Assembly: GCF_947623445.1 (NCBI RefSeq)
Contig: NC_135246.1
Span: forward strand, 19,028,288-19,092,287
DNA: 64,000 nt
Origin: Clavelina lepadiformis
Taxonomy: Eukaryota
Direction: 5' to 3'
The notes under the pieces were generated by a model. It was not told where the DNA came from, searched no databases, and saw only the letters and a program-made list of their open reading frames with translations. The translations under genes were made by a program, and so were the position numbers. Shown here piece by piece: positions 1 to 39,419 of this stretch (positions are counted from its first letter, which is position 1; every line of letters begins with the position of its first letter).

Positions 1-465
1 AAGAAAAGCAGGAGGTGGGTGGACAAGGTTTGGAACCTGCAAACTCTGGGAGGATATTCGGCAACTTACAACCAGAGCAGTATTAACCGGTGTTGATATC
101 TTGTTATTATGCAATACCTAAATTATTCCAACATCAGTAGTTGTTACGGCTGTTAAACTTTAGTTACTGTACATTGCTTTCGTCAACCAGAATATGTTGC
201 AAATTACCCGCTCTGCCTTCAGTCAGGCCAATGGCGCAGCATCCTGATGCACATTAGGTGGAGAGTAAAGTTTAGTGAATAACAATCCAAAGGTTCCCGG
301 TTCAAACCCAGGACCTTGCAAGTCCGTTTCGGCGTATAAACTTGAATTCCAAATGTTTTCATTGGTTTTTTTAAAAAATACACCACAACTGTGCTTAATG
401 TTCAATGCAAATAGATAAAATCGCACTTTTCGCAAATCACTTATGGAAGCGTGATTCCAATTCCG

Positions 466-547
466 CGTTGTCGGCAGGATTCGAACCTAAGCGGGCAGAG
501 CCCAGCAGATTTCTAGTCTGTCGCCTTAACCACTCGGCCACGACAAC
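466..547 (-). tRNA. tRNA-Ser(AGA), class II, 82 nt
   Basis: The reverse complement reads GTTGTCGTGGCCGAGTGGTTAAGGCGACAGACTAGAAATCTGCTGGGCTCTGCCCGCTTAGGTTCGAATCCTGCCGACAACG. It has a 3-bp D stem, a long variable arm and a GGTTCGAATCC T-arm. The anticodon loop CTAGAAA gives AGA. Confidence 0.9.
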
Positions 548-624
548 TGTGCTTAATGCATAGATGAAATAGTTAAAATACCACATTTCCGAATATCCAT
601 ATGAAATTGCAAAAGTAATATCGG

Positions 625-706
625 CGTTGTCGGCAGGATTCGAACCTACGCGGGCTGGGCCCAACAGATTTCGAGTCTGTCGCCTTAACCACTCGGCCAC
701 GACAAC
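625..706 (-). tRNA. tRNA-Ser(CGA), 82 nt
   Basis: Same scaffold 159 bp downstream. The anticodon loop CTCGAAA gives CGA. Variable arm is GGGCCCAGCCC. Confidence 0.9.
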
Positions 707-783
707 TGTGCTTAATGCATAGATGAAATAGTTAAAATGGCACATTTCCGAATATCCATATGAAATTGCAAAAGTAATATCGG

Positions 784-865
784 CGTTGTCGGCAGGATTC
801 GAACCTACGCGGGCAGGGCCCAACAGATTTCGAGTCTGTCGCCTTAACCACTCGGCCACGACAAC
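784..865 (-). tRNA. tRNA-Ser(CGA), 82 nt
   Basis: Third 159-bp sub-repeat. Anticodon loop is CTCGAAA. The variable arm differs by one base, GGGCCCTGCCC. Confidence 0.9.
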
Positions 866-942
866 TGTGCTTAATGCATAGATGAAATAGATAAAATCGC
901 ACTTTTCCGAATATCCATATGAAATTGCAAAAGTAATATCGG

Positions 943-1024
943 CGTTGTCGGCAGGATTCGAACCTACGCGGGCATAGCCTAACAGATTTCAAGTCTGTCG
1001 CCTTAACCACTCGGCCACGACAAC
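943..1024 (-). tRNA. tRNA-Ser(TGA), 82 nt
   Basis: Fourth 159-bp sub-repeat. The anticodon loop CTTGAAA gives TGA. Variable arm is TAGGCTATGCC. Confidence 0.9.
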
Positions 1025-1136
1025 TGTGCTTAATGTGAAATGCAAATAGATAAAATGGCACTTTTCTCGAATCACTAGATAGATTCCACCATGTCGGTGT
1101 TTCCGGAATCTTCTCCTGACTTTCAAATCTGACAAG

Positions 1137-1310
1137 ATGAAAATGTAGCTAGCGTAGTCTAGATAAAAATCTAGCTAGTGTAGTCTAGATGAAAATGAAG
1201 CTAGCGTAGTCTAGATGAAAATCAAGCTAGCGTAGTCTAGATGAAAATCAAGCAAGCGTAGTCTAGATGAAAATCAAGCTAGCGTAGTCTAGATGAAAAT
1301 CAAGCTGATT
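1137..1310. repeat. 26-bp minisatellite, about 6.5 copies of GATGAAAATCAAGCTAGCGTAGTCTA. It recurs in every array unit at +2309n.
   Basis: Tandem 26-mers with point variants (gtagct, ctagct, gaagct, caagct, caagca) were read directly. Confidence 0.85.
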
Positions 1311-2774
1311 TCGAGACCTAGCTACGCCTACGTCTCTGTAGTGTATTAACTATAAGCTAGTTTCAACTAAATTTTAAGTATTAAAGTAAACTTCTGTTAT
1401 TTTCTTAAGGGGTCATGTCCCAATTCAAAGAGATAGGCTTTTCAATGCAAAGTACATTAAATCAAGAAGCTACCAACGCAAAACTACATCATAAACCTAC
1501 CCTGAATTTTGGCTTGCAACAAGACCTAGGTTATGTCTGTCTACAGTCTTAATTTGGACAAAATCCTTGTACTCAGTTTTCTATAACAATTGCCTAAACT
1601 TTACAACAAGTTTTTAGCTTAACATTTTATGACAAATACTCCAAAAAAACAAAAATTCAAACCCACACAAAATTTACAACTTAGCCTAGACCTGGAACCA
1701 GCTGTCGTCAAAGCAACGACGAACTACTCCACATCGACGTCACATGCGCATTGGACCGGAAAATTTTTACTTTTTTTAATATGACGCATTGAGTGCGACA
1801 CGGTCACAATCACTGTGTTGCCGGCACAAAATTGTCGTTTTATTGGGAAGTGACCCCTTAAACGTGAAGAAATTCATAAATTTTAGTTTTACTTATGACT
1901 ATATCTATATATAGATATCTATATATATTATATAAGGTAAGTGATTAGGATTAGGATTAGGTGATTAGTAGGGCAAGTTTTTGCAACTTTTGCAACTTTT
2001 TTTACAGCTTCCGGCAGCTTCCTAAATACTCAGGATTTATGTGAGTCTAGCCAGCTGGTGGTCTAGACACCAATCAGCTGGTGGTCTAGACGGTCAAATG
2101 GTCATCAAACGGTTGTTGGCTCGTCGCTCTGCGGCTCGCTGGTTTGAACCTGCAGCTTGTCTGTCGACGTTCTCCGGTTTTTCCACTGTGCTATGAGTTC
2201 CCCCCACCCACCCTATGCTTTCTGCGCATCTTGACTTTATTGCTTTAGGACTTTGGGCGTTTTTGCAATATTATTGTGCACTTTAACGCAGTCGGACTTA
2301 CAATCTCGCAAGAAAAGCAGGAGGTGGGTGGACAAGGTTTGGAACCTGCAAACTCTGGGAGGATATTCGGCAACTTACAACCAGAGCAGTATTAACCGGT
2401 GTTGATATCTTGTTATTATGCAATACCTAAATTATTCCAACATCAGTAGTTGTTACGGCTGTTAAACTTTAGTTACTGTACATTGCTTTCGTCAACCAGA
2501 ATATGTTGCAAATTACCCGCTCTGCCTTCAGTCAGGCCAATGGCGCAGCATCCTGATGCACATTAGGTGGAGAGTAAAGTTTAGTGAATAACAATCCAAA
2601 GGTTCCCGGTTCAAACCCAGGACCTTGCAAGTCCGTTTCGGCGTATAAACTTGAATTCCAAATGTTTTCATTGGTTTTTTTAAAAAATACACCACAACTG
2701 TGCTTAATGTTCAATGCAAATAGATAAAATCGCACTTTTCGCAAATCACTTATGGAAGCGTGATTCCAATTCCG

Positions 2775-2856
2775 CGTTGTCGGCAGGATTCGAACCTAAG
2801 CGGGCAGAGCCCAGCAGATTTCTAGTCTGTCGCCTTAACCACTCGGCCACGACAAC
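2775..2856 (-). tRNA. tRNA-Ser(AGA), unit 2
   Basis: Identical copy of 466..547, offset +2309. Confidence 0.9.
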
Positions 2857-2933
2857 TGTGCTTAATGCATAGATGAAATAGTTAAAATACCACATTTCCG
2901 AATATCCATATGAAATTGCAAAAGTAATATCGG

Positions 2934-3015
2934 CGTTGTCGGCAGGATTCGAACCTACGCGGGCTGGGCCCAACAGATTTCGAGTCTGTCGCCTTAACCA
3001 CTCGGCCACGACAAC
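2934..3015 (-). tRNA. tRNA-Ser(CGA), unit 2
   Basis: Identical copy of 625..706, offset +2309. Confidence 0.9.
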
Positions 3016-3092
3016 TGTGCTTAATGCATAGATGAAATAGTTAAAATGGCACATTTCCGAATATCCATATGAAATTGCAAAAGTAATATCGG

Positions 3093-3174
3093 CGTTGTCG
3101 GCAGGATTCGAACCTACGCGGGCAGGGCCCAACAGATTTCGAGTCTGTCGCCTTAACCACTCGGCCACGACAAC
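3093..3174 (-). tRNA. tRNA-Ser(CGA), unit 2
   Basis: Identical copy of 784..865, offset +2309. Confidence 0.9.
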
Positions 3175-3251
3175 TGTGCTTAATGCATAGATGAAATAGA
3201 TAAAATCGCACTTTTCCGAATATCCATATGAAATTGCAAAAGTAATATCGG

Positions 3252-3333
3252 CGTTGTCGGCAGGATTCGAACCTACGCGGGCATAGCCTAACAGATTTCA
3301 AGTCTGTCGCCTTAACCACTCGGCCACGACAAC
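3252..3333 (-). tRNA. tRNA-Ser(TGA), unit 2
   Basis: Identical copy of 943..1024, offset +2309. Confidence 0.9.
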
Positions 3334-5083
3334 TGTGCTTAATGTGAAATGCAAATAGATAAAATGGCACTTTTCTCGAATCACTAGATAGATTCCACCA
3401 TGTCGGTGTTTCCGGAATCTTCTCCTGACTTTCAAATCTGACAAGATGAAAATGTAGCTAGCGTAGTCTAGATAAAAATCTAGCTAGTGTAGTCTAGATG
3501 AAAATGAAGCTAGCGTAGTCTAGATGAAAATCAAGCTAGCGTAGTCTAGATGAAAATCAAGCAAGCGTAGTCTAGATGAAAATCAAGCTAGCGTAGTCTA
3601 GATGAAAATCAAGCTGATTTCGAGACCTAGCTACGCCTACGTCTCTGTAGTGTATTAACTATAAGCTAGTTTCAACTAAATTTTAAGTATTAAAGTAAAC
3701 TTCTGTTATTTTCTTAAGGGGTCATGTCCCAATTCAAAGAGATAGGCTTTTCAATGCAAAGTACATTAAATCAAGAAGCTACCAACGCAAAACTACATCA
3801 TAAACCTACCCTGAATTTTGGCTTGCAACAAGACCTAGGTTATGTCTGTCTACAGTCTTAATTTGGACAAAATCCTTGTACTCAGTTTTCTATAACAATT
3901 GCCTAAACTTTACAACAAGTTTTTAGCTTAACATTTTATGACAAATACTCCAAAAAAACAAAAATTCAAACCCACACAAAATTTACAACTTAGCCTAGAC
4001 CTGGAACCAGCTGTCGTCAAAGCAACGACGAACTACTCCACATCGACGTCACATGCGCATTGGACCGGAAAATTTTTACTTTTTTTAATATGACGCATTG
4101 AGTGCGACACGGTCACAATCACTGTGTTGCCGGCACAAAATTGTCGTTTTATTGGGAAGTGACCCCTTAAACGTGAAGAAATTCATAAATTTTAGTTTTA
4201 CTTATGACTATATCTATATATAGATATCTATATATATTATATAAGGTAAGTGATTAGGATTAGGATTAGGTGATTAGTAGGGCAAGTTTTTGCAACTTTT
4301 GCAACTTTTTTTACAGCTTCCGGCAGCTTCCTAAATACTCAGGATTTATGTGAGTCTAGCCAGCTGGTGGTCTAGACACCAATCAGCTGGTGGTCTAGAC
4401 GGTCAAATGGTCATCAAACGGTTGTTGGCTCGTCGCTCTGCGGCTCGCTGGTTTGAACCTGCAGCTTGTCTGTCGACGTTCTCCGGTTTTTCCACTGTGC
4501 TATGAGTTCCCCCCACCCACCCTATGCTTTCTGCGCATCTTGACTTTATTGCTTTAGGACTTTGGGCGTTTTTGCAATATTATTGTGCACTTTAACGCAG
4601 TCGGACTTACAATCTCGCAAGAAAAGCAGGAGGTGGGTGGACAAGGTTTGGAACCTGCAAACTCTGGGAGGATATTCGGCAACTTACAACCAGAGCAGTA
4701 TTAACCGGTGTTGATATCTTGTTATTATGCAATACCTAAATTATTCCAACATCAGTAGTTGTTACGGCTGTTAAACTTTAGTTACTGTACATTGCTTTCG
4801 TCAACCAGAATATGTTGCAAATTACCCGCTCTGCCTTCAGTCAGGCCAATGGCGCAGCATCCTGATGCACATTAGGTGGAGAGTAAAGTTTAGTGAATAA
4901 CAATCCAAAGGTTCCCGGTTCAAACCCAGGACCTTGCAAGTCCGTTTCGGCGTATAAACTTGAATTCCAAATGTTTTCATTGGTTTTTTTAAAAAATACA
5001 CCACAACTGTGCTTAATGTTCAATGCAAATAGATAAAATCGCACTTTTCGCAAATCACTTATGGAAGCGTGATTCCAATTCCG

Positions 5084-5165
5084 CGTTGTCGGCAGGATTC
5101 GAACCTAAGCGGGCAGAGCCCAGCAGATTTCTAGTCTGTCGCCTTAACCACTCGGCCACGACAAC
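5084..5165 (-). tRNA. tRNA-Ser(AGA), unit 3
   Basis: Identical copy, offset +4618. Confidence 0.9.
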
Positions 5166-5242
5166 TGTGCTTAATGCATAGATGAAATAGTTAAAATACC
5201 ACATTTCCGAATATCCATATGAAATTGCAAAAGTAATATCGG

Positions 5243-5324
5243 CGTTGTCGGCAGGATTCGAACCTACGCGGGCTGGGCCCAACAGATTTCGAGTCTGTCG
5301 CCTTAACCACTCGGCCACGACAAC
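5243..5324 (-). tRNA. tRNA-Ser(CGA), unit 3
   Basis: Identical copy, offset +4618. Confidence 0.9.
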
Positions 5325-5401
5325 TGTGCTTAATGCATAGATGAAATAGTTAAAATGGCACATTTCCGAATATCCATATGAAATTGCAAAAGTAATATCG
5401 G

Positions 5402-5483
5402 CGTTGTCGGCAGGATTCGAACCTACGCGGGCAGGGCCCAACAGATTTCGAGTCTGTCGCCTTAACCACTCGGCCACGACAAC
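5402..5483 (-). tRNA. tRNA-Ser(CGA), unit 3
   Basis: Identical copy, offset +4618. Confidence 0.9.
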
Positions 5484-5560
5484 TGTGCTTAATGCATAGA
5501 TGAAATAGATAAAATCGCACTTTTCCGAATATCCATATGAAATTGCAAAAGTAATATCGG

Positions 5561-5642
5561 CGTTGTCGGCAGGATTCGAACCTACGCGGGCATAGCCTAA
5601 CAGATTTCAAGTCTGTCGCCTTAACCACTCGGCCACGACAAC
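5561..5642 (-). tRNA. tRNA-Ser(TGA), unit 3
   Basis: Identical copy, offset +4618. Confidence 0.9.
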
Positions 5643-7392
5643 TGTGCTTAATGTGAAATGCAAATAGATAAAATGGCACTTTTCTCGAATCACTAGATAG
5701 ATTCCACCATGTCGGTGTTTCCGGAATCTTCTCCTGACTTTCAAATCTGACAAGATGAAAATGTAGCTAGCGTAGTCTAGATAAAAATCTAGCTAGTGTA
5801 GTCTAGATGAAAATGAAGCTAGCGTAGTCTAGATGAAAATCAAGCTAGCGTAGTCTAGATGAAAATCAAGCAAGCGTAGTCTAGATGAAAATCAAGCTAG
5901 CGTAGTCTAGATGAAAATCAAGCTGATTTCGAGACCTAGCTACGCCTACGTCTCTGTAGTGTATTAACTATAAGCTAGTTTCAACTAAATTTTAAGTATT
6001 AAAGTAAACTTCTGTTATTTTCTTAAGGGGTCATGTCCCAATTCAAAGAGATAGGCTTTTCAATGCAAAGTACATTAAATCAAGAAGCTACCAACGCAAA
6101 ACTACATCATAAACCTACCCTGAATTTTGGCTTGCAACAAGACCTAGGTTATGTCTGTCTACAGTCTTAATTTGGACAAAATCCTTGTACTCAGTTTTCT
6201 ATAACAATTGCCTAAACTTTACAACAAGTTTTTAGCTTAACATTTTATGACAAATACTCCAAAAAAACAAAAATTCAAACCCACACAAAATTTACAACTT
6301 AGCCTAGACCTGGAACCAGCTGTCGTCAAAGCAACGACGAACTACTCCACATCGACGTCACATGCGCATTGGACCGGAAAATTTTTACTTTTTTTAATAT
6401 GACGCATTGAGTGCGACACGGTCACAATCACTGTGTTGCCGGCACAAAATTGTCGTTTTATTGGGAAGTGACCCCTTAAACGTGAAGAAATTCATAAATT
6501 TTAGTTTTACTTATGACTATATCTATATATAGATATCTATATATATTATATAAGGTAAGTGATTAGGATTAGGATTAGGTGATTAGTAGGGCAAGTTTTT
6601 GCAACTTTTGCAACTTTTTTTACAGCTTCCGGCAGCTTCCTAAATACTCAGGATTTATGTGAGTCTAGCCAGCTGGTGGTCTAGACACCAATCAGCTGGT
6701 GGTCTAGACGGTCAAATGGTCATCAAACGGTTGTTGGCTCGTCGCTCTGCGGCTCGCTGGTTTGAACCTGCAGCTTGTCTGTCGACGTTCTCCGGTTTTT
6801 CCACTGTGCTATGAGTTCCCCCCACCCACCCTATGCTTTCTGCGCATCTTGACTTTATTGCTTTAGGACTTTGGGCGTTTTTGCAATATTATTGTGCACT
6901 TTAACGCAGTCGGACTTACAATCTCGCAAGAAAAGCAGGAGGTGGGTGGACAAGGTTTGGAACCTGCAAACTCTGGGAGGATATTCGGCAACTTACAACC
7001 AGAGCAGTATTAACCGGTGTTGATATCTTGTTATTATGCAATACCTAAATTATTCCAACATCAGTAGTTGTTACGGCTGTTAAACTTTAGTTACTGTACA
7101 TTGCTTTCGTCAACCAGAATATGTTGCAAATTACCCGCTCTGCCTTCAGTCAGGCCAATGGCGCAGCATCCTGATGCACATTAGGTGGAGAGTAAAGTTT
7201 AGTGAATAACAATCCAAAGGTTCCCGGTTCAAACCCAGGACCTTGCAAGTCCGTTTCGGCGTATAAACTTGAATTCCAAATGTTTTCATTGGTTTTTTTA
7301 AAAAATACACCACAACTGTGCTTAATGTTCAATGCAAATAGATAAAATCGCACTTTTCGCAAATCACTTATGGAAGCGTGATTCCAATTCCG

Positions 7393-7474
7393 CGTTGTCG
7401 GCAGGATTCGAACCTAAGCGGGCAGAGCCCAGCAGATTTCTAGTCTGTCGCCTTAACCACTCGGCCACGACAAC
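7393..7474 (-). tRNA. tRNA-Ser(AGA), unit 4
   Basis: Identical copy, offset +6927. Confidence 0.9.
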
Positions 7475-7551
7475 TGTGCTTAATGCATAGATGAAATAGT
7501 TAAAATACCACATTTCCGAATATCCATATGAAATTGCAAAAGTAATATCGG

Positions 7552-7633
7552 CGTTGTCGGCAGGATTCGAACCTACGCGGGCTGGGCCCAACAGATTTCG
7601 AGTCTGTCGCCTTAACCACTCGGCCACGACAAC
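7552..7633 (-). tRNA. tRNA-Ser(CGA), unit 4
   Basis: Identical copy, offset +6927. Confidence 0.9.
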
Positions 7634-7710
7634 TGTGCTTAATGCATAGATGAAATAGTTAAAATGGCACATTTCCGAATATCCATATGAAATTGCAAAA
7701 GTAATATCGG

Positions 7711-7792
7711 CGTTGTCGGCAGGATTCGAACCTACGCGGGCAGGGCCCAACAGATTTCGAGTCTGTCGCCTTAACCACTCGGCCACGACAAC
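7711..7792 (-). tRNA. tRNA-Ser(CGA), unit 4
   Basis: Identical copy, offset +6927. Confidence 0.9.
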
Positions 7793-7869
7793 TGTGCTTA
7801 ATGCATAGATGAAATAGATAAAATCGCACTTTTCCGAATATCCATATGAAATTGCAAAAGTAATATCGG

Positions 7870-7951
7870 CGTTGTCGGCAGGATTCGAACCTACGCGGGC
7901 ATAGCCTAACAGATTTCAAGTCTGTCGCCTTAACCACTCGGCCACGACAAC
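7870..7951 (-). tRNA. tRNA-Ser(TGA), unit 4
   Basis: Identical copy, offset +6927. Confidence 0.9.
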
Positions 7952-9701
7952 TGTGCTTAATGTGAAATGCAAATAGATAAAATGGCACTTTTCTCGAATC
8001 ACTAGATAGATTCCACCATGTCGGTGTTTCCGGAATCTTCTCCTGACTTTCAAATCTGACAAGATGAAAATGTAGCTAGCGTAGTCTAGATAAAAATCTA
8101 GCTAGTGTAGTCTAGATGAAAATGAAGCTAGCGTAGTCTAGATGAAAATCAAGCTAGCGTAGTCTAGATGAAAATCAAGCAAGCGTAGTCTAGATGAAAA
8201 TCAAGCTAGCGTAGTCTAGATGAAAATCAAGCTGATTTCGAGACCTAGCTACGCCTACGTCTCTGTAGTGTATTAACTATAAGCTAGTTTCAACTAAATT
8301 TTAAGTATTAAAGTAAACTTCTGTTATTTTCTTAAGGGGTCATGTCCCAATTCAAAGAGATAGGCTTTTCAATGCAAAGTACATTAAATCAAGAAGCTAC
8401 CAACGCAAAACTACATCATAAACCTACCCTGAATTTTGGCTTGCAACAAGACCTAGGTTATGTCTGTCTACAGTCTTAATTTGGACAAAATCCTTGTACT
8501 CAGTTTTCTATAACAATTGCCTAAACTTTACAACAAGTTTTTAGCTTAACATTTTATGACAAATACTCCAAAAAAACAAAAATTCAAACCCACACAAAAT
8601 TTACAACTTAGCCTAGACCTGGAACCAGCTGTCGTCAAAGCAACGACGAACTACTCCACATCGACGTCACATGCGCATTGGACCGGAAAATTTTTACTTT
8701 TTTTAATATGACGCATTGAGTGCGACACGGTCACAATCACTGTGTTGCCGGCACAAAATTGTCGTTTTATTGGGAAGTGACCCCTTAAACGTGAAGAAAT
8801 TCATAAATTTTAGTTTTACTTATGACTATATCTATATATAGATATCTATATATATTATATAAGGTAAGTGATTAGGATTAGGATTAGGTGATTAGTAGGG
8901 CAAGTTTTTGCAACTTTTGCAACTTTTTTTACAGCTTCCGGCAGCTTCCTAAATACTCAGGATTTATGTGAGTCTAGCCAGCTGGTGGTCTAGACACCAA
9001 TCAGCTGGTGGTCTAGACGGTCAAATGGTCATCAAACGGTTGTTGGCTCGTCGCTCTGCGGCTCGCTGGTTTGAACCTGCAGCTTGTCTGTCGACGTTCT
9101 CCGGTTTTTCCACTGTGCTATGAGTTCCCCCCACCCACCCTATGCTTTCTGCGCATCTTGACTTTATTGCTTTAGGACTTTGGGCGTTTTTGCAATATTA
9201 TTGTGCACTTTAACGCAGTCGGACTTACAATCTCGCAAGAAAAGCAGGAGGTGGGTGGACAAGGTTTGGAACCTGCAAACTCTGGGAGGATATTCGGCAA
9301 CTTACAACCAGAGCAGTATTAACCGGTGTTGATATCTTGTTATTATGCAATACCTAAATTATTCCAACATCAGTAGTTGTTACGGCTGTTAAACTTTAGT
9401 TACTGTACATTGCTTTCGTCAACCAGAATATGTTGCAAATTACCCGCTCTGCCTTCAGTCAGGCCAATGGCGCAGCATCCTGATGCACATTAGGTGGAGA
9501 GTAAAGTTTAGTGAATAACAATCCAAAGGTTCCCGGTTCAAACCCAGGACCTTGCAAGTCCGTTTCGGCGTATAAACTTGAATTCCAAATGTTTTCATTG
9601 GTTTTTTTAAAAAATACACCACAACTGTGCTTAATGTTCAATGCAAATAGATAAAATCGCACTTTTCGCAAATCACTTATGGAAGCGTGATTCCAATTCC
9701 G

Positions 9702-9783
9702 CGTTGTCGGCAGGATTCGAACCTAAGCGGGCAGAGCCCAGCAGATTTCTAGTCTGTCGCCTTAACCACTCGGCCACGACAAC
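9702..9783 (-). tRNA. tRNA-Ser(AGA), unit 5
   Basis: Identical copy, offset +9236. Confidence 0.9.
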
Positions 9784-9860
9784 TGTGCTTAATGCATAGA
9801 TGAAATAGTTAAAATACCACATTTCCGAATATCCATATGAAATTGCAAAAGTAATATCGG

Positions 9861-9942
9861 CGTTGTCGGCAGGATTCGAACCTACGCGGGCTGGGCCCAA
9901 CAGATTTCGAGTCTGTCGCCTTAACCACTCGGCCACGACAAC
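9861..9942 (-). tRNA. tRNA-Ser(CGA), unit 5
   Basis: Identical copy, offset +9236. Confidence 0.9.
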
Positions 9943-10019
9943 TGTGCTTAATGCATAGATGAAATAGTTAAAATGGCACATTTCCGAATATCCATATGAA
10001 ATTGCAAAAGTAATATCGG

Positions 10020-10101
10020 CGTTGTCGGCAGGATTCGAACCTACGCGGGCAGGGCCCAACAGATTTCGAGTCTGTCGCCTTAACCACTCGGCCACGACAA
10101 C
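10020..10101 (-). tRNA. tRNA-Ser(CGA), unit 5
   Basis: Identical copy, offset +9236. Confidence 0.9.
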
Positions 10102-10178
10102 TGTGCTTAATGCATAGATGAAATAGATAAAATCGCACTTTTCCGAATATCCATATGAAATTGCAAAAGTAATATCGG

Positions 10179-10260
10179 CGTTGTCGGCAGGATTCGAACC
10201 TACGCGGGCATAGCCTAACAGATTTCAAGTCTGTCGCCTTAACCACTCGGCCACGACAAC
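10179..10260 (-). tRNA. tRNA-Ser(TGA), unit 5
   Basis: Identical copy, offset +9236. Confidence 0.9.
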
Positions 10261-12010
10261 TGTGCTTAATGTGAAATGCAAATAGATAAAATGGCACTTT
10301 TCTCGAATCACTAGATAGATTCCACCATGTCGGTGTTTCCGGAATCTTCTCCTGACTTTCAAATCTGACAAGATGAAAATGTAGCTAGCGTAGTCTAGAT
10401 AAAAATCTAGCTAGTGTAGTCTAGATGAAAATGAAGCTAGCGTAGTCTAGATGAAAATCAAGCTAGCGTAGTCTAGATGAAAATCAAGCAAGCGTAGTCT
10501 AGATGAAAATCAAGCTAGCGTAGTCTAGATGAAAATCAAGCTGATTTCGAGACCTAGCTACGCCTACGTCTCTGTAGTGTATTAACTATAAGCTAGTTTC
10601 AACTAAATTTTAAGTATTAAAGTAAACTTCTGTTATTTTCTTAAGGGGTCATGTCCCAATTCAAAGAGATAGGCTTTTCAATGCAAAGTACATTAAATCA
10701 AGAAGCTACCAACGCAAAACTACATCATAAACCTACCCTGAATTTTGGCTTGCAACAAGACCTAGGTTATGTCTGTCTACAGTCTTAATTTGGACAAAAT
10801 CCTTGTACTCAGTTTTCTATAACAATTGCCTAAACTTTACAACAAGTTTTTAGCTTAACATTTTATGACAAATACTCCAAAAAAACAAAAATTCAAACCC
10901 ACACAAAATTTACAACTTAGCCTAGACCTGGAACCAGCTGTCGTCAAAGCAACGACGAACTACTCCACATCGACGTCACATGCGCATTGGACCGGAAAAT
11001 TTTTACTTTTTTTAATATGACGCATTGAGTGCGACACGGTCACAATCACTGTGTTGCCGGCACAAAATTGTCGTTTTATTGGGAAGTGACCCCTTAAACG
11101 TGAAGAAATTCATAAATTTTAGTTTTACTTATGACTATATCTATATATAGATATCTATATATATTATATAAGGTAAGTGATTAGGATTAGGATTAGGTGA
11201 TTAGTAGGGCAAGTTTTTGCAACTTTTGCAACTTTTTTTACAGCTTCCGGCAGCTTCCTAAATACTCAGGATTTATGTGAGTCTAGCCAGCTGGTGGTCT
11301 AGACACCAATCAGCTGGTGGTCTAGACGGTCAAATGGTCATCAAACGGTTGTTGGCTCGTCGCTCTGCGGCTCGCTGGTTTGAACCTGCAGCTTGTCTGT
11401 CGACGTTCTCCGGTTTTTCCACTGTGCTATGAGTTCCCCCCACCCACCCTATGCTTTCTGCGCATCTTGACTTTATTGCTTTAGGACTTTGGGCGTTTTT
11501 GCAATATTATTGTGCACTTTAACGCAGTCGGACTTACAATCTCGCAAGAAAAGCAGGAGGTGGGTGGACAAGGTTTGGAACCTGCAAACTCTGGGAGGAT
11601 ATTCGGCAACTTACAACCAGAGCAGTATTAACCGGTGTTGATATCTTGTTATTATGCAATACCTAAATTATTCCAACATCAGTAGTTGTTACGGCTGTTA
11701 AACTTTAGTTACTGTACATTGCTTTCGTCAACCAGAATATGTTGCAAATTACCCGCTCTGCCTTCAGTCAGGCCAATGGCGCAGCATCCTGATGCACATT
11801 AGGTGGAGAGTAAAGTTTAGTGAATAACAATCCAAAGGTTCCCGGTTCAAACCCAGGACCTTGCAAGTCCGTTTCGGCGTATAAACTTGAATTCCAAATG
11901 TTTTCATTGGTTTTTTTAAAAAATACACCACAACTGTGCTTAATGTTCAATGCAAATAGATAAAATCGCACTTTTCGCAAATCACTTATGGAAGCGTGAT
12001 TCCAATTCCG

Positions 12011-12092
12011 CGTTGTCGGCAGGATTCGAACCTAAGCGGGCAGAGCCCAGCAGATTTCTAGTCTGTCGCCTTAACCACTCGGCCACGACAAC
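12011..12092 (-). tRNA. tRNA-Ser(AGA), unit 6
   Basis: Identical copy, offset +11545. Confidence 0.9.
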
Positions 12093-12169
12093 TGTGCTTA
12101 ATGCATAGATGAAATAGTTAAAATACCACATTTCCGAATATCCATATGAAATTGCAAAAGTAATATCGG

Positions 12170-12251
12170 CGTTGTCGGCAGGATTCGAACCTACGCGGGC
12201 TGGGCCCAACAGATTTCGAGTCTGTCGCCTTAACCACTCGGCCACGACAAC
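12170..12251 (-). tRNA. tRNA-Ser(CGA), unit 6
   Basis: Identical copy, offset +11545. Confidence 0.9.
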
Positions 12252-12328
12252 TGTGCTTAATGCATAGATGAAATAGTTAAAATGGCACATTTCCGAATAT
12301 CCATATGAAATTGCAAAAGTAATATCGG

Positions 12329-12410
12329 CGTTGTCGGCAGGATTCGAACCTACGCGGGCAGGGCCCAACAGATTTCGAGTCTGTCGCCTTAACCACTCGG
12401 CCACGACAAC
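12329..12410 (-). tRNA. tRNA-Ser(CGA), unit 6
   Basis: Identical copy, offset +11545. Confidence 0.9.
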
Positions 12411-12487
12411 TGTGCTTAATGCATAGATGAAATAGATAAAATCGCACTTTTCCGAATATCCATATGAAATTGCAAAAGTAATATCGG

Positions 12488-12569
12488 CGTTGTCGGCAGG
12501 ATTCGAACCTACGCGGGCATAGCCTAACAGATTTCAAGTCTGTCGCCTTAACCACTCGGCCACGACAAC
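12488..12569 (-). tRNA. tRNA-Ser(TGA), unit 6
   Basis: Identical copy, offset +11545. Confidence 0.9.
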
Positions 12570-13403
12570 TGTGCTTAATGTGAAATGCAAATAGATAAAA
12601 TGGCACTTTTCTCGAATCACTAGATAGATTCCACCATGTCGGTGTTTCCGGAATCTTCTCCTGACTTTCAAATCTGACAAGATGAAAATGTAGCTAGCGT
12701 AGTCTAGATAAAAATCTAGCTAGTGTAGTCTAGATGAAAATGAAGCTAGCGTAGTCTAGATGAAAATCAAGCTAGCGTAGTCTAGATGAAAATCAAGCAA
12801 GCGTAGTCTAGATGAAAATCAAGCTAGCGTAGTCTAGATGAAAATCAAGCTGATTTCGAGACCTAGCTACGCCTACGTCTCTGTAGTGTATTAACTATAA
12901 GCTAGTTTCAACTAAATTTTAAGTATTAAAGTAAACTTCTGTTATTTTCTTAAGGGGTCATGTCCCAATTCAAAGAGATAGGCTTTTCAATGCAAAGTAC
13001 ATTAAATCAAGAAGCTACCAACGCAAAACTACATCATAAACCTACCCTGAATTTTGGCTTGCAACAAGACCTAGGTTATGTCTGTCTACAGTCTTAATTT
13101 GGACAAAATCCTTGTACTCAGTTTTCTATAACAATTGCCTAAACTTTACAACAAGTTTTTAGCTTAACATTTTATGACAAATACTCCAAAAAAACAAAAA
13201 TTCAAACCCACACAAAATTTACAACTTAGCCTAGACCTGGAACCAGCTGTCGTCAAAGCAACGACGAACTACTCCACATCGACGTCACATGCGCATTGGA
13301 CCGGAAAATTTTTACTTTTTTTAATATGACGCATTGAGTGCGACACGGTCACAATCACTGTGTTGCCGGCACAAAATTGTCGTTTTATTGGGAAGTGACC
13401 CCT

Positions 13404-14561: not shown

Positions 14562-15909
14562 GGTGTACCGACACTTAATCACGTGACACTTAATCACGCG
14601 ACGCTTAATCACCGACACATAATCACTAGGACATTTAATCACGCGACACATAATCACTAGGACATTTAATCACGCGACACATAATCACTAGGACATTTAA
14701 TCACGCGACTTGGATACTTAATCACGCGACATTTAATCACGCGACACATAATCACTTGGATGCGACTGCCAAAGGCTTCCTTGGTCTTTCTTTTAGAACT
14801 CCCCGACAATTGTTTTGACTCCGTTGTTTCTTTAAATCAACACCAGCTTCATAAAGTCTAATTGTTACATTGTCCGAAAGTATAACCTATGTAATATCTA
14901 ACATTATTCTACTGTATTGTCACCGAAGCTCTTGACCAAAGTACCATCAAAACGTTACACCGTAAAATACAATGCTACTTGAAACTGTGTCAGAGCGTCG
15001 ATTTTGGAACTCTGGAACAATGCCACTGAATGAATTATTACAATTTACTATCACGACCGGTTTACAATTTACTATCACGGCTTTGGCAAGACAGGCTATC
15101 AGTCAAATGAAGGTGAATATGGGTGAACTGTCAGCCAGTACAAGCAACGTCATCGGGTCTGTAAGCAGAGACTTGGAACCAGGTGTACTCATGGCGCTGC
15201 CAAAAAAGCAATCTTTGAAGCGGACCTTGCAGAGAAAACGTCGCGATATGCTGACTGCACACTGTACGGCCGCTCTACAGTCTCCGATGGATACTAATTT
15301 CACAATACCAGAAACATTCCAGCGCATGATTTTGCACGACTCTGGACCTGGAAACAATCGTCTGATTCTTCTTGGCAGCAGGGATCTGCTAGACGGTTTG
15401 GCCAGAGCGAAATTGTGGCTAGCTGATGGAACGTTCAAGGTTGTACCGTCTTTGTTCTTTCAACTATACACAGTACATTTTGAACTTGTTCCCGGTCTTA
15501 TTCCTGCAGCAGTTTACTGCCTCGTTCAAAATAAAACGCGAGCAACGTACGATCGCATCCTTGATGCAATTAAAACAATGATCCCCACTGCTGTACAAGG
15601 CACTGAAACTGCGCGTGCAAAACACAGCTGACCGTTATCTGTCAAGCGAGATTTTAGTCTATCTTCGTGCAGTTGCTTACATTTCCCATGCATAACATTG
15701 CTGTAAATTGTAAATGTAAAAAAATATTGTAAATGTGTAATTAAATGTCGCGTGATTAAATGTCCTAGTGATTATGTGTCGCGTGATTAAATGTCCTAGT
15801 GATTATGTGTCGCGTGATAAAATGTCGCGTGATTAAATGTCCTAGTGATTATGTGTCGGTGATTAAGCGTCGCGTGATTAATTGTCGCGTGATTAAGTGT
15901 CACCAAACC
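14562..15909 (+). mobile_element. Non-autonomous MULE-like (Mutator superfamily) DNA transposon with long terminal inverted repeat (TIR) arrays and 8-bp TSDs
   Basis: The left end GGTGTACCGACACTTAATCACG... and the reverse complement of the right end GGTGACACTTAATCACGCGAC... are inverted repeats. Each end carries ~180 bp of tandem 12-24-bp motifs (TTAATCACGCGAC / ACATAATCACTAGGACATTTAATCACGCGAC). It is flanked by a perfect 8-bp direct repeat GGTCTGGA at 14554-14561 and 15910-15917. Internally it carries a truncated transposase ORF. Confidence 0.65.
14972..15631 (+). CDS. Truncated transposase fragment (219 aa) of the MULE-like element
   Basis: It is the only long ORF inside the TIR-bounded element. 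The motif ...LWLADGTFKVVPSLFFQLYTVHFELVPGLIPAAVYCLVQNKTRATYDRILDAI... resembles the DDE core region of MuDR/MULE transposases (D-x-T-[FY]-K ... spaced hydrophobics). At 219 aa it is too short to be autonomous. Confidence 0.45.
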   Translation: MLLETVSERRFWNSGTMPLNELLQFTITTGLQFTITALARQAISQMKVNMGELSASTSNVIGSVSRDLEPGVLMALPKKQSLKRTLQRKRRDMLTAHCTAALQSPMDTNFTIPETFQRMILHDSGPGNNRLILLGSRDLLDGLARAKLWLADGTFKVVPSLFFQLYTVHFELVPGLIPAAVYCLVQNKTRATYDRILDAIKTMIPTAVQGTETARAKHS

Positions 15910-18899
15910 GGTCTGGAAGGTTGTTTTTGTTTGCAAGTACTGTAGAAGAAGGCGAAAAAATTAACTTTAATGACAAGTTTGTTGTCTTTCTACCTCTTTT
16001 TGACTGCGTTTTTATCACTTATTTTCCTCGATATATATTTACTGGCAACATCGATGTTATTGATAGAGAACAACGTACATAGATTTAATCTGCAATGTAA
16101 ACTTTTAATAGAGAACGTCGTACTTACTGTTTTCACGACCGAGTCTTGACATATCCTCTTTGCTTTGAACAGGCCCACGTTGGGCAAAGTTGCCAAATTC
16201 TTTACATCGAAACGCTTTTTGCCATGAGCAAGGCGACCAAACTCTGCCCATTCCAAGTCAAATCACAGAAAACCCGGAGGCAACATGCTCGGTTGACTTT
16301 TCCGTTGATGGAACCACGTGGTCATGGACCATATTTTTTAAGACAGTGCCTTACATTATCACTGCAAACTTTTAAATTGATTGAAAAAAGATAAAATTAA
16401 ATGTGGCAGGAATATCATGTTAGTAAAACAACTGTTTTTAATTAGTGGAATACAAACAACATCCAAATGACGTGTAGGCCATGATGGACAATGGGCAGGG
16501 TTGGGGTTGTGATGTACGGTGCATATTATACCACACAGATGGAAAATAATATATACTTCCTGGTTTGGGAAATCTACTTTGCGAAGCGTTGCGTTACGTG
16601 TCGCCTATGCATAACTTCCTGTGTATCGTTATAAATCGTGACGTGAGTTATTCTTTCATTCATAGCTATTCATTGCGTTACAGTCTACTAAGTTAACCCT
16701 AGAAAGTGGTCGACTTTATTATGTAGCTGTCCCAATGTTTTATCTAAATGTGTGCGTTTAAAGAAGCTTCAATATAATCAGAATATACAGTTGTCATTGT
16801 TGTGTAACCTTTGTAGTGAAGTGGGTAAACCTTACAGGTTAAGGTACCATATACCACTTTTCATTACAGGGTATAATGGTTAGTAGTTATCGATTCGTCA
16901 ATTGCCGGAATTTACTTGGTTTTATCAAAAAACATTCATTATTTGATTAATCATTACTTTGAACAAAATGACACCGTACCAATTAACGCCATCAGGCGAG
17001 TAAACTTATATCAATTTGAATTCTCATTCGGCCTCTTTATATCAGCGCACGTTTTTAAGTCTGAAGTCTTAAGTCTTTAAAAAGATTTGCACGTTTTCAA
17101 AAACATTTTATAAATAATTGTTTGAAACGTCTTTAAGTAGGATGGGCAACCTAGTAAGTAGTTTATTAAATTACTTTAAGGAATATTGGATTAAACATTC
17201 TTTCAGAGCAACTCAGCCTAAGCGTAATCAAAGTGACGAAACAACGCGTAGGTTATTCCTCAACTGGTCCGTCGCGATTTGTGAGTATCTCCAGAATAAA
17301 CAGATTTTTCGTTAAAAGGTGCAGGCGACTAGATAATTACACTTTTTGCCGTCTGATAGTTTGCAACGACAGTATACGAATGGCACATAAGTTACAAAAC
17401 GAAGTTTATTTATTTTCAAAGTATTAAAAGTTAGTTCCCTTTGGAACAACGCGCTCTTCCATCGAAGCATGGACAGAGTTTCCAAACAAGACATCTATCT
17501 GAGACCAGCCGCTTCCAAACAAGAAACGTTCACACGGGGCAGAAATAGATAAGTCCGTTTATTAGAAACCTGGGAAAACAAAGTCATGCAACTCGCTGTA
17601 ACCATTAAAGCAACATATAACGACCCCATTGAAATTTAAAGCTCTCGTAAAACTTGTGCTTTTTGCACAGTTTTTAAACTACCAATATCAATATCAATAA
17701 CCGGCCCTACTTTGATCGTGATATAATCGTATCTGTTCTAAGCACTGCACGCGGAAATTGTTTGGTTTTATGATAGTTAAATGCTGCGAGAAATCGCTGA
17801 AAACTGACTGAGCCCTGTGGAAATAATATATTTCTGCAAAAGTCTAACTAAAAGAACGTAGTAAATAGACTAAGCTATGAGCTTTCGCTTCATCTCAAGA
17901 CACTACCTCACCAGCAAGTACTAAAACTTAATTTAAAAACGAAAACTATTTATTGTGTCAAAATTCCGACTCCTTACTAGTTACTACACATTTGCATCAT
18001 GCAATATTGAAATTGTCATATTGGAGCGAATGTCTGGAACGTATGATGAGTAGACTAATGAACGGAACGTACGACAGATCCAAAACGCTTGAGAACACAA
18101 TTTTGAAACAGAAATTTCAAACGAAAAAAAATGTTTTCGCCAATAAGATAATTTATGGGGAAAGATTAGACAGGGAAGAAATAAAGATTTGGACACAAGG
18201 TGCAAGATTGGTAAAATTAAATAAAGCAAGCAGGGGATATTGCAATTTTAGGATTAGCTCAGGTGCCAAGTCGCTATATTTCGAAGGCTCTTTTTGTACA
18301 GTCTCACGCAATTATCAGCTTGAGATAAAAGTATTGCCACAAAGCCAGGAGCAATTAAATCAGATATAACTGGAAGCAAGCGCGACTTCCACAACAAATT
18401 TTAAAGGTTTTGGCAATAACGAGACTGGTGGCTTCAAAATGTGAGCAAAGCGTTACTGTGAAGAACATAACTGAAGATTAATCGATTTTAAACTAAAATT
18501 TGTGTTTTTAAAATTTGCAGAAAGTTCGGTTTTGTTATAAAATAATTGTGCAAAATATTATTTCTAATCAAATTGATCGAATCTTCCTTACACGAAATCG
18601 CAACAAGTAAAAACTTTTAGATAAATTTTTCTTCTGCGGCATGCATCCTGATATTTATTTCATAGATCAAAAAATCTTTGGTTACATTCGCCAAAGCTGA
18701 ACCATTGTCTTCTTTATCTTCTGGTGAAGCTTCTCGAAGGCGGCTCATTGTATTCAGCCATGAAACCGTTTGGTACAAAAGTTTATTTATAATTATAATA
18801 AATGTAATCAATCAATACAATGAAGAAGCACCGACGACATAACTTGGTACAAATCATCGAACTGATTTGAGAGTTTATAGATCGATATAAAAATCGCCA

Positions 18900-33980: not shown

Positions 33981-34520
33981 ATGCTTCGTTGGATATGTCG
34001 AGAAGAGAAGGAAAGAGAGCCAGAGATATTTGAAAACGTGTCGTTGGGTTTAAAGAATCTTTATAAAAGCAGACTTAAACCACTGGAAGAGGCATATAAA
34101 TTCCATAACTTTCATTCACCTGCATTACACAATGCTGACTTTGACTCAAAGCCTATGATTTTACTAATAGGCCAGTACTCAACCGGAAAAACAACGTTCA
34201 TTAGATATTTGTTGGAAAAAGATTTTCCAGGCATGAGAATTGGCCCCGAACCAACAACAGACTGCTTTATTGCTATAATGGCTGGTGCAAAAGACAAAGC
34301 CAGTGGAGTTGTCAATGAAGGGATTGTTCCTGGAAATGCTGCTGTTGTCGATGATACAAAACCTTTTAGGGCCCTTTCCTCATTCGGAAATGCATTTTTA
34401 TCTCGGTTTTTATGTTCTCATATGGAAAATGAAGTTTTAAACAGCATCAGCATCATCGACACTCCTGGTATTTTGTCTGGTGAAAAGCAGAGAGTAAACC
34501 GAGGTTATGATTTTGCAAAG
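33981..34520 (+). CDS. EHD: EHD (EH-domain-containing dynamin-like ATPase) exon 1
   Basis: The translation MLRWICREEKEREPEIFENVSLGLKNLYKSRLKPLEEAYKFHNFHSPALHNADFDSKPMILLIGQYSTGKTTFIRYLLEKDFPGMRIGPEPTTD...SIIDTPGILSGEKQRVNRGYDFAK matches the EHD1-4 N-terminal G-domain, including the P-loop GQYSTGKTTF and DTPG. The donor follows at aag|gtaatt. Confidence 0.85.
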
Positions 34521-34772
34521 GTAATTTTAAAGTGAGGTTTCTCGTCAACATGCATAACCGAGCCATAAATTATCTAAAGTAACACTTGTACATATTATAG
34601 TCCTTTGCAATTAATTTAATCAAATTTACCGATAATTTTTGTTTTGGTTTGCTCGTATTATGTTTTGTTTACCTTTTAAGACAAATAATTACCATGAATA
34701 CAAATAATTACTTAATTACCTTAATGTTTACAGCGAATTTAGAAGTCCTTTTGTTAGCCTCAGTTTTTTCAG

Positions 34773-36372: not shown

Positions 36373-37196
36373 GTCCACCTGAAAGAAAACTATGAGACTG
36401 TTAAGACTTTGTTGAATGTTTTAAAGTACGATCAATATAACTGGGAAAAATTGGGGACTTTAAAATGGTAGCGTTTGTAATGGGTATGCAAGGGGGGTTC
36501 ACCAAGTATCCTTGCCACCTTTGCCTTTGGGATAGTAGGGCTACCACAGAACACTACAAAAAGCAAATATGGCCAAAACGAAACGAATTTGTTGTTGGAG
36601 AGAAAAACGTAGGGCAAACTCGGTTGATTAACCCAAACAAAGTGCTTATGCCTCCCCTTCACATAAAACTTGGGCTTATAAAGCAATTTGTGAAAGCATT
36701 GGATAAAGGTGGTGACGCATTCCAGTTTCTGAAAAACTTGTTTCCTGAACTATCAGAAGCTAAAGTAAAAGCTGGTGTATTTATTGGCCCACAAATTAAA
36801 AAGATTCTCAAGTCAAATGATTTTATCCAAATGCTTAATGATGTTGAAAAGAAGGCTTGGGATAGCTTTGCAGATGTGGTGAATGGGTTCTTGGGCAATA
36901 ACAAGGAAGATAACTATGCCGAACTCGTTGCCAATTTGGTAAAGTCGTATGGAAACATGGGGTGCAGAATGTCCATGAAAGTACATATGCTTGATGCTCA
37001 CTTGGACGAGTTTAAAGACAATATGGGAGCTTATTCAGAAGAACAAGGGGAGCGATTCCATCAAGACATAACAGATTTTGAAAGGAGATACCAAGGGCAA
37101 TATAATGAAAGCATGATGGGAGATTATGTCTGGGCCTTGATGCGGGAAAGTGATGTGGAGTACAAAAGAAAATCCCGCAAAACATCCCATTTTTAA
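36373..37196 (+). pseudogene. Transposon-derived ORF remnant inside EHD intron 4. The intact 243-aa ORF is 36465-37196, preceded by a frameshifted continuation.
   Basis: The ORF reads MVAFVMGMQGGFTKYPCHLCLWDSRATTEHYKK...MGCRMSMKVHMLDAHLDEFKDNMGAYSEEQGERFHQDITDFERRYQGQYNESMMGDYVWALMRE. It is single-exon, sits in the sense orientation inside a host intron, and carries a Cys/His motif. The upstream +2 frame reads LKENYETVKTLLNVLKYDQYNWEKLGTLKW*, so it is a fragment of a larger ORF. Its family is unresolved. From memory I associate this motif pattern with transposon-domesticated proteins common in invertebrate genomes, but I cannot place it in a family. Confidence 0.4.
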
Positions 37197-38703: not shown

Positions 38704-38809
38704 GTTGACGACATGCTTGCAAAAGACATTGCCGAGTTGATGAAGTTGATTCAGAGAGAGGAAACTAAAGCTGCCGAGAAAATCAAGTCTGAAGGCCCTT
38801 CAGTTAAAG
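38704..38809 (+). CDS. EHD: EHD exon 6
   Basis: ctgtttag|gttgacgac encodes VDDMLAKDIAELMKLIQREETKAAEKIKSEGPSVK(G). It ends in phase 1 before gtatttgc. Confidence 0.8.
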
Positions 38810-38920
38810 GTATTTGCATTTACATTTCTGTACAGCACATGGTGTGTTTTACAAACTATTTGACAAAGATATCACCACTAAAATTCACCTTTAACCTTAG
38901 CACACTGTCTGTTGTTTCAG

Positions 38921-39099
38921 GTGGAGCATTTTTTGCTTCCAAAGATAATCCTTTCAGCAATACATTTGGAGTCGGAGTTAACGCTGGGAGCGATTGTGAT
39001 GGAGAATGGATCGTTTCAGAGAAGAAATCAGCGTATGACGAAGTCTTCATGAAACTGAATCCGGCCGACGGCAAAGTCAAAGGAAGTGAAGCGAAGAAG
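38921..39099 (+). CDS. EHD: EHD exon 7
   Basis: tgtttcag|gtggagc encodes GGAFFASKDNPFSNTFGVGVNAGSDCDGEWIVSEKKSAYDEVFMKLNPADGKVKGSEAKK, then aag|gtggta. Compare EHD1 GGAFDGT...EWVVGKDKPTYDEIFYTLSPVNGKITGANAKK. Confidence 0.8.
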
Positions 39100-39419
39100 G
39101 TGGTACTCTAAATAATAACAGCAACCAGTCCAGCTGGTCACTATGGTGTCATAACTGGTGCAAAATGCACGTAGTTGTATAAAAGTTGTATTATTCCAGT
39201 AAAAATTTACTAAAAACTGCCCATTGTTTTCTCAGCGAATTAAAAACATATGTGTTACTTATTTAATATGCTGCATGTGTATATTAACTTATCGCTTTCC
39301 TTTTACTATTATCGCATAAAATGTGTCCGAACCTATACCTAGAGTAGTTGCTGGCAATAGCTACTATCATACTATCACAAAAGTTTTTGGTTTTTTGCAT
39401 TTTTTTCTCTCGTATGCAG

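Follow-up and report, generated by a model that had tools for sequence, protein, structure and literature searches.

Tandem tRNA-Ser genes with three UCN anticodons in a higher-order repeat of the ascidian Clavelina lepadiformis: anticodon types that probably predate a young local amplification

Tandem arrays of tRNA genes are known from eukaryotes, for example as the 3.18-kb tRNA repeat of Xenopus laevis and the Ser-Tyr-Tyr repeat of Arabidopsis. Here, we describe an array of tRNA-Ser genes from the colonial ascidian Clavelina lepadiformis. It lies in a stretch of 64,000 nucleotides (assembly GCF_947623445.1, contig NC_135246.1, positions 19,028,288 to 19,092,287 of the forward strand), which is called the window in the following, and its first block of genes is found at positions 466-1024 of this window. 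The closest classical case is reportedly that of the tRNA-Ser4 (CGA) and tRNA-Ser7 (AGA) genes of Drosophila melanogaster at 12DE on the X chromosome, studied in the 1980s and said to include hybrid genes. Their bodies are said to be near-identical apart from position 34 and one or two further sites, and the copies to show exchange among each other, as here; unlike here, they are reportedly only a handful of irregularly spaced genes, without a 159-bp array, a higher-order unit or massive amplification.

tRNA array units in tandem were described for Entamoeba histolytica (PMC2888827; PMC2652664, in part), and in zebrafish highly repetitive loci encode maternal tRNAs, with near-identical tRNAs that differ at position 34 (PMC11417395). 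The C. lepadiformis array resembles these in its head-to-tail units, its high copy number and its many variants and pseudogenes, and it has short intergenic repeats as in Entamoeba. Unlike the known tandem tRNA arrays, which mostly combine different amino acids, it encodes serine alone, and its three UCN anticodons form blocks. When the anticodon of a duplicated nuclear tRNA gene shifted to that of an isoacceptor, position 34 was affected in 39 of 44 cases, and such shifts were proposed as the origin of mixed-anticodon clusters (PMC2997554, PMC3923123). As in the shifts described by Rogers et al. in these papers, the amino acid identity is kept here and one base is changed, and additional changes are often found in the variable region and in pair 27:43. 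Unlike here, those shifts concern single orthologous genes compared between species, few of them for serine, and not a higher-order repeat with at least hundreds of copies in one genome. In the literature searched, no description of such tRNA-Ser arrays in tunicates was found.

We consider it likely that the locus belongs to a tandem tRNA-Ser(UCN) family with a higher-order repeat, whose anticodon variants predate the window locus, and that the window shows a young amplification. According to this explanation, the four genes would belong to a large nuclear tRNA-Ser(UCN) family with a monomer of 159 bp, an 82-nt gene plus a 77-nt spacer, and the three anticodons would have arisen in duplicated copies by single-base substitutions at the wobble position 34. 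These isoacceptor shifts would have preceded the copying of a larger unit, the macro-unit, to several chromosomal sites, and position 34 would have changed again independently afterwards. The window would then show one very young amplification of a 2.3-kb macro-unit, probably by unequal exchange involving a transposon-like element at the unit boundary.

Both ARAGORN and the Rfam model RF00005 (Infernal/cmscan, threshold 29 bits) find four 82-nt eukaryotic cytosolic tRNA-Ser genes at 466-1024, all on the minus strand and 159 bp apart. The anticodons AGA, CGA, CGA and TGA, which an earlier sequence-only reading of the stretch had assigned, were found again, with scores of 51.5-64.3 bits (Table 1). 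All four genes have a 7-bp acceptor stem (GUUGUCG/CGACAAC), a D stem of 3 bp, a 7-nt anticodon loop (C32-U33-N34-G35-A36-A37-A38), a variable region of 14 nt with a stem of 3-4 bp, the T loop UUCGAAU and G73 (linear position 82). CCA is not encoded; the 3' flanks begin with CCG or CGG, not CCA. The A box (TGGCCGAGTGG at +8) and the B box (GGTTCGAATCC at +61) are intact in all four genes, and the first TTTT follows at +11 after the two CGA genes and the TGA gene and at +46 after the AGA gene. The consensus fold of the four genes is the cloverleaf, which is also the minimum-energy fold of CGA copy 1. Two independent programs (ARAGORN and cmscan) place the anticodon at 34-36, and because the genes show the standard features of eukaryotic nuclear class II tRNA-Ser, a misassignment of the anticodon loops by a different fold, against which the sequence-only reading had cautioned, is ruled out. 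The serine identity elements that it had named, G73 and the long variable arm, are present in every gene. With their scores, these elements, the NGA loop with U33 and A37 and the RNA polymerase III features, the four are members of the eukaryotic cytosolic tRNA-Ser genes. The CGA and TGA genes are plausible working RNA polymerase III genes, since they combine a perfect cloverleaf and A and B boxes with a nearby T4 terminator.

Other assignments were considered. A tRNA-derived short interspersed element was rejected, as the genes are complete, end at the discriminator and stand in tandem with a fixed spacer, without a tail or an unrelated body. A permissive Rfam scan of the macro-unit gave no RNA gene besides the four tRNAs; weak plus-strand matches to "Plastid-ycf2" and "sX4" were far under the threshold and are mirror images of the tRNAs. 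A scan for bacterial promoters and terminators found nothing and is inapplicable to eukaryotic RNA polymerase III genes, for which A box, B box and T runs were checked directly.

The four genes vary at seven sites (linear positions 34, 43, 45, 49, 50, 51 and 58), of which 45 and 49-51 are in the variable arm. All seven fall into a central segment of 25 nt (34-58), and the outer 57 nt are near-identical. The sequence-only reading had taken the acceptor, D and T arms to be identical and the differences to be restricted to position 34 and the variable arm. The acceptor and D arms do have the same sequence in all four genes and the restriction describes three of them correctly, but the AGA gene departs from it: its C43 and U49 (linear 58) lead to the mismatches A27.C43 at the top of the anticodon stem and U49.C65 in the first pair of the T stem, so that the T arm is not shared by this gene. 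Both pairs were flagged as non-canonical by cmscan and also counted as broken in a separate pair count. The AGA cloverleaf has -24.3 kcal/mol, compared to -29.0 kcal/mol for CGA, and is not the minimum-energy fold of this gene. In the TGA gene, A45 weakens the base of the variable stem. By the wobble rules, A34 is converted to inosine and reads U, C and A, C34 reads G, and U34 reads A and G; the set of AGA, CGA and TGA could, in principle, read all four UCN codons. The idea of a UCN supply would be weakest at the AGA gene, the one needed for UCU and UCC. This gene is of doubtful quality and is the poorest copy: two pairs in its stems are mismatched, and the distance to the first T4 is 46 nt instead of 11 nt.

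Tandem Repeats Finder (TRF) recovered the 159-bp sub-repeat reported before: at 465-1072 it lists 3.8 copies with a period of 159, and 95% of the positions match. Pairwise, the genes differ at 1-5 of 82 positions and the spacers at 2-4 of 77, and a conserved TTAAGCACA directly precedes the next gene in each 77-nt spacer. Since the spacers are 95-97% alike, the four genes go back to copying of a single 159-bp unit. Three different bases occupy position 34 among them; if eight substitutions are distributed at random over 82 sites, two or more at position 34 are expected with P = 0.0037. Spacer identity, the three states at position 34 and the sufficiency of three anticodons for the UCN box by wobble are also what one would expect if the genes had been duplicated locally inside the 2.3-kb unit and had mutated in place at position 34, giving a self-contained UCN decoder locus. 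We regard this as very unlikely. The AGA copy with its two stem mismatches and distant terminator argues against it, and so do the paralogues of the locus.

These paralogues were found by a protein search with a spurious open reading frame (ORF) of 140 aa that runs across the tRNA array (437-859, minus strand). Its best matches, with 89-93% identity, are all termed unnamed protein product of C. lepadiformis and are located on scaffolds of 5.4, 7.3, 11.6 and 15.4 Mb (GCA_961645235.1); an exact-protein look-up of the window ORFs 437-859 and 36465-37196 gave no match. The NCBI models P0121-P0131, P0139 and P0198 of C. lepadiformis are translated tRNA-Ser arrays and, hence, spurious gene models. 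Four loci, L123 to L126, were compared, with genes counted by ARAGORN and full-length copies extracted by BLAST. L123 (20.6 kb; CAUIVY010000006.1:2676125-2696735) has 92 genes and 94 full-length copies (90 CGA, 4 AGA), and its array covers the whole locus and continues past both ends. L124 (20.8 kb) has 60 genes and 65 full-length copies (27 CGA, 27 TGA, 10 AGA, 1 GGA), L125 has 8 genes and 8 copies (6 CGA, 2 TGA) and L126 has 3 of each, one TGA, one CGA and one AGA. Further spurious protein models map to the 5.4-Mb scaffold of L123, where the array may be much longer. The macro-unit is 96.3% identical to L126 over 1321 bp and 95-97% identical to L125. The unique flank of the window has no match in any of the four loci (megablast), and they are thus paralogues and not the window's own locus.

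Along the direction of transcription, the order of blocks is TGA, CGA, AGA in the window as well as in L124, L125 and L126. Written with the first letter of the anticodon, the window has T-C-C-A and L126 T-C-A; L125 has two inverted copies of T-C-C-C plus a truncated relic of AGA; and in L124, TTTT-CCAA, TTTT-CCCCAA and similar units recur, built as (T block)-292-(C block)(A block). Block sizes that vary between units are as expected from unequal crossing-over. With a period of 159 bp and a 2309-bp unit that is itself repeated, the locus is a tandem tRNA array with a higher-order repeat.

The anticodon types are shared between the loci. The AGA type with C43, the variable loop TCT and U49 is present in the window, in L126 and in nine copies of L124, and the AGA gene of the window is identical to L126 11318-11399. 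The TGA type with A45 and the loop TAT is common to the window and L126, and the TAT loop is also found in L125. Each gene of the window has its nearest relative in a copy with the same anticodon elsewhere (AGA, 0 differences to L126; TGA, 1 to L125 and L126; CGA, 1 to L126 and L123), whereas genes of the window that belong to different anticodon types are 4-5 substitutions apart. Because subtype markers, order and nearest relatives are shared with other loci, the anticodon types are older than the locus in the window, and the macro-unit would therefore have been copied with the three types already present. The claim of a diversification within this unit does not hold against these data: other scaffolds carry these subtypes as well, with identical linked substitutions and an unchanged order. 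Could the other loci be recent copies of the window locus? A divergence of 4% between them, compared to 0% within the window array, argues against it. From the proposal of an anticodon shift after local duplication, the point change at position 34 in duplicated copies is retained; place and time are not.

Position 34 has changed more than once. In L123 and L124 there is a second AGA type, with T43, the loop CCA or CAA and a G at canonical position 49, which shares the background of the CGA genes there, and L124 has one GGA gene on a TGA background as well as CGA copies on a TGA-like background. Such independent changes on several backgrounds indicate that new shifts at position 34 do occur. 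The GGA gene (L124 1322-1404, minus strand) has a clean cloverleaf with 61.4 bits and is on the strand opposite to the rest of the array; serine tRNAs with G34 are not known as a normal part of eukaryotic nuclear genomes, where A34 (inosine) is used instead. Among 174 copies, taken from one window unit and the 170 paralogues in L123-L126, position 34 ranks second of 82 by entropy and has all four bases, and positions 33, 35, 36, 37 and G73 are invariant. With copied flanks, an unchanged amino acid and a one-base change of the anticodon at position 34, these cases are isoacceptor shifts. The variation at position 34 fits the observation that the anticodon does not specify the aminoacylation of tRNA-Ser (PMC6827378, in part). 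As seryl-tRNA synthetase ignores the anticodon, another base at position 34 is harmless within NGA; a change at position 35 or 36 would yield a serine-inserting missense tRNA.

It is also conceivable that the isoacceptor genes were anciently distinct and became homogenised by gene conversion or unequal exchange, with selection keeping the anticodons apart. Partial conversion tracts could confine variable sites to 34-58 and leave the outer 57 nt and the spacers near-identical, and UCN isoacceptors of other eukaryotes also have one common body. Homogenisation of the spacer, however, needs an exchange of the whole 159 bp, which overwrites the anticodon, too. In addition, position 34 was shifted independently on several backgrounds (the second AGA type and GGA), and in an array from another eukaryote, L127, 26 AGA and 5 TGA copies have their sole difference at this position. 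Ancient distinctness is, in our view, quite unlikely.

The block of four genes is part of a macro-unit of 2309 bp and recurs unchanged at +2309, +4618, +6927, +9236 and +11545. By ARAGORN, the window has six identical blocks of four, 24 tRNA-Ser genes in total, and each of these is encoded on the minus strand. The macro-array comprises at least 5.8 copies, as its left end lies beyond the window; its right end is 1 nt past the outer terminus of a 449-bp element with imperfect terminal inverted repeats (GGGGTCATGTCCCAAT / ATTGGGAAGTGACCCC). This element is probably a piggyBac-like miniature transposon, because it is flanked by TTAA on both sides; duplication of TTAA is typical of the piggyBac superfamily. 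A copy with 99.3% identity is found at L126 15052-15462, and the 26-bp tandem repeat upstream of the TGA gene is also present at L124, L125 and L126. The end of the array at the terminus of the element, the single array end that is visible, fits an unequal exchange between element copies. A double-insertion model was put forward in which satellite arrays are seeded by transposable elements (bioRxiv 10.1101/158386, in part). As far as this part of the source describes it, the model resembles the present case in that there is one TTAA element per macro-unit and the array stops 1 nt past an element terminus; unlike the cases there, the cargo is a block of tRNA genes, and one array end is visible in the window.

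Another part of the macro-unit, segment 2041-2250 (about 150-210 bp), recurs between tRNA groups in L123 and L124 with 82-96% identity and accounts for the gaps of 331 bp between tRNA triplets in L123. On the tRNA-sense strand it holds a T-arm-like stretch (GCAGGTTCAAACCAGC); it may represent a tRNA copy that is badly eroded.

Several observations weigh against the explanation we favour, or limit how far it reaches. Gene and spacer have a similar nucleotide diversity in 97 units (6.5% and 8.5%, respectively), and this speaks against most of the copies being under strong selection. CGA makes up 126 of the 174 copies, an excess not predicted by the decoding demand of a four-codon box. The invariance of positions 35 and 36 is not significant alone, as 29 of the 82 positions are invariant (P about 0.13 for two named sites), and it was rejected as a proof of selection. 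The direction of the changes at position 34 is uncertain: the best-scoring member of the family, a TGA gene of L124 with about 67 bits, has the loop TCT and the T stem GCAGG, states that are found in tRNA-Ser of unrelated eukaryotes, a hint that it is the loops CCA and CCT in the CGA genes which are derived. Finally, the identity of the macro-units could partly stem from assembly polishing.

The first two of these points lead to the question of whether the whole family, including the window, consists of tRNA-derived satellite pseudogenes, with the anticodon variants as neutral passengers of amplification. The paralogues are indeed decaying. The 174 copies fall into 90 haplotypes with scores of 29.6-67.2 bits, and stem-breaking variants are frequent: C12G affects 39% of the copies, an A.C mismatch of the T stem 58% and C81A 25%. 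A perfect cloverleaf, free of broken pairs, is kept by only 11 of the 170 paralogues, and none of the 16 AGA copies sampled has fewer than two broken pairs. In L124 the diversity of the gene (9.1%) is higher than that of the spacer (5.6%), the diversity of the variable region reaches 15%, the T4 run is lost from the commonest L123 spacer, and one array exceeds 20 kb. Because of this decay and the similar diversity of gene and spacer, the family appears, for the most part, to behave as tRNA-derived satellite DNA. The window differs from this picture. Three genes out of four, or 18 of the 24 copies, show no structural defect and have complete RNA polymerase III signals, with A and B boxes and T4 at +11, which is unexpected for old pseudogenes; judged by structure, the window array is among the better candidates for working CGA and TGA genes. 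Moreover, position 34 varies freely, in contrast to the constant positions 33, 35, 36, 37 and G73, a compensated A1:U72 pair is found in five AGA copies of L124, and the highly repetitive tRNA loci of zebrafish are expressed maternally (PMC11417395). A family made up of pseudogenes throughout is thereby a possible account of the locus, albeit not a likely one.

The perfect identity of the macro-units has to be judged separately. Over 13.4 kb and 5.8 copies there is not a single mismatch, compared to about 4% between paralogous loci; this points to an amplification that is very recent or, alternatively, to assembly or polishing as the cause. If it were an artefact, the real locus would have fewer or differing copies. 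We think this unlikely: single long reads can cover all 13 kb of such an array, the single unit in L126 and the inverted duplicates in L125 demonstrate that the unit is real, and the array ends cleanly at a transposon terminus. It should be mentioned that an artefact would bear on the copy number alone and not on the four genes.

Mixed serine anticodons in one place are not restricted to Clavelina. A metagenome scan with the core of D arm and anticodon stem gave at least 120 loci from many unrelated eukaryotes, which served as an outgroup set. The Clavelina acceptor stem was in none of them among the matches listed, and among these matches several eukaryotes pair one acceptor stem with two or three UCN anticodons. 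On one metagenome contig (L115) AGA, TGA and AGA genes follow each other within 700 bp, on another (L087) AGA and TGA genes are 267 bp apart. The search with the spurious ORF also led to L127 and L129 (ERZ26222911), tRNA-Ser arrays with a period of 170 bp and a different acceptor stem. L127 contains 26 identical AGA and 5 identical TGA copies, which differ from each other at position 34 alone, and L129 has inversions within the array. A further array, L128 (ERZ26695794), has a period of 179 bp and another body, and its TGA and CGA copies are interleaved. Bodies and spacers of L127, L129 and L128 are unrelated to those of Clavelina. Since these arrays differ from that of Clavelina, tandem tRNA-Ser arrays with mixed anticodons appear to have arisen more than once.

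The remainder of the window is AT-rich animal DNA that includes two exons of a gene of the EHD family (EH-domain, dynamin-like ATPase). A search with the first exon gave only a contig of 1.6 kb from a marine metagenome (PRJEB8682), with 99% identity, and no named Clavelina protein. The intron between the exons contains an ORF of 243 aa (36465-37196) without a Pfam match. No Pfam match was obtained for the ORFs 14972-15631, 17953-18369 and 38713-39111 either. Two arrays of 15/31-bp repeats (14569-14760 and 15740-15902), inverted relative to each other, flank ORF 14972-15631 (219 aa), and the region around it looks like a DNA transposon with subterminal repeats.

Table 1 Features of the window, with positions counted from its first nucleotide.
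Feature	Position	Strand	Source and remarks
tRNA-Ser(AGA)	466..547	-	ARAGORN; last of block in direction of transcription; 51.5 bits; -24.3 kcal/mol
tRNA-Ser(CGA), copy 1	625..706	-	Variable loop CCA; fully canonical cloverleaf; 62.9 bits; -29.0 kcal/mol
tRNA-Ser(CGA), copy 2	784..865	-	Variable loop CCT; fully canonical; 62.9 bits; one base different from copy 1
tRNA-Ser(TGA)	943..1024	-	First of block in direction of transcription; A45; variable loop TAT; 64.3 bits
Three spacers of 77 nt	548-624, 707-783, 866-942	-	Sequence comparison; 95-97% alike
TTTT runs, likely RNA polymerase III terminators	611-614, 770-773, 929-932	-	11 nt past the upstream gene
Divergent spacer downstream of the AGA gene	381..465	-	Repeat search; TRF period 318; first T4 at 417-420
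Relic, 5' end of a fifth gene copy	381-400	-	CACCACAACTGTGCTTAATG; repeat family D3
26-bp tandem repeat directly upstream of the TGA gene	1135..1306 (+2309 per unit)		TRF; AGATGAAAATCAAGCTAGCGTAGTCT; 6.6 copies
449-bp element with imperfect terminal inverted repeats	1409-1857 (1405..1861 with TTAA)		TTAA on both sides; one per macro-unit
Macro-array of the 2309-bp unit	1..13403		Five complete copies and 1858 bp of a sixth; zero mismatches between copies
Block 2	2775..3333	-	AGA 2775-2856, CGA 2934-3015, CGA 3093-3174, TGA 3252-3333
Block 3	5084..5642	-	ARAGORN, Rfam
Block 4	7393..7951	-	ARAGORN, Rfam
Block 5	9702..10260	-	ARAGORN, Rfam
Block 6	12011..12569	-	ARAGORN, Rfam
EHD-family gene, exon with EHD_N and Dynamin_N	33981-34535		Pfam
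EHD-family gene, exon with EH domain	39348-39791		Pfam

That tRNA genes undergo isoacceptor shifts in clusters was known; noteworthy are the scale and the higher-order organisation in an ascidian and the recurrence in other eukaryotes. It is tempting to speculate, although we consider it rather doubtful, that tRNA-Ser genes are unusually prone to form satellite-like arrays with mixed UCN anticodons, that such arrays arise independently and that changes in block size re-tune the isoacceptor supply. Changes at position 34 would be harmless, as the synthetase ignores the anticodon, and changes at 35 or 36 would be removed by selection; the arrays might provide a maternal or oocyte-type tRNA pool, like the repetitive loci of zebrafish. 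If the arrays are expressed, C. lepadiformis would have hundreds of tRNA-Ser genes whose anticodon mix can be altered by gain or loss of blocks, and would be a natural system to study tRNA supply versus codon demand and the tolerance of a load of defective tRNA genes. If they are silent, they would be a clear case of a tRNA gene becoming satellite DNA. Either way, decaying array members inflate the counts of tRNA genes and "isoacceptor families" in annotations, and the arrays give rise to spurious protein models.

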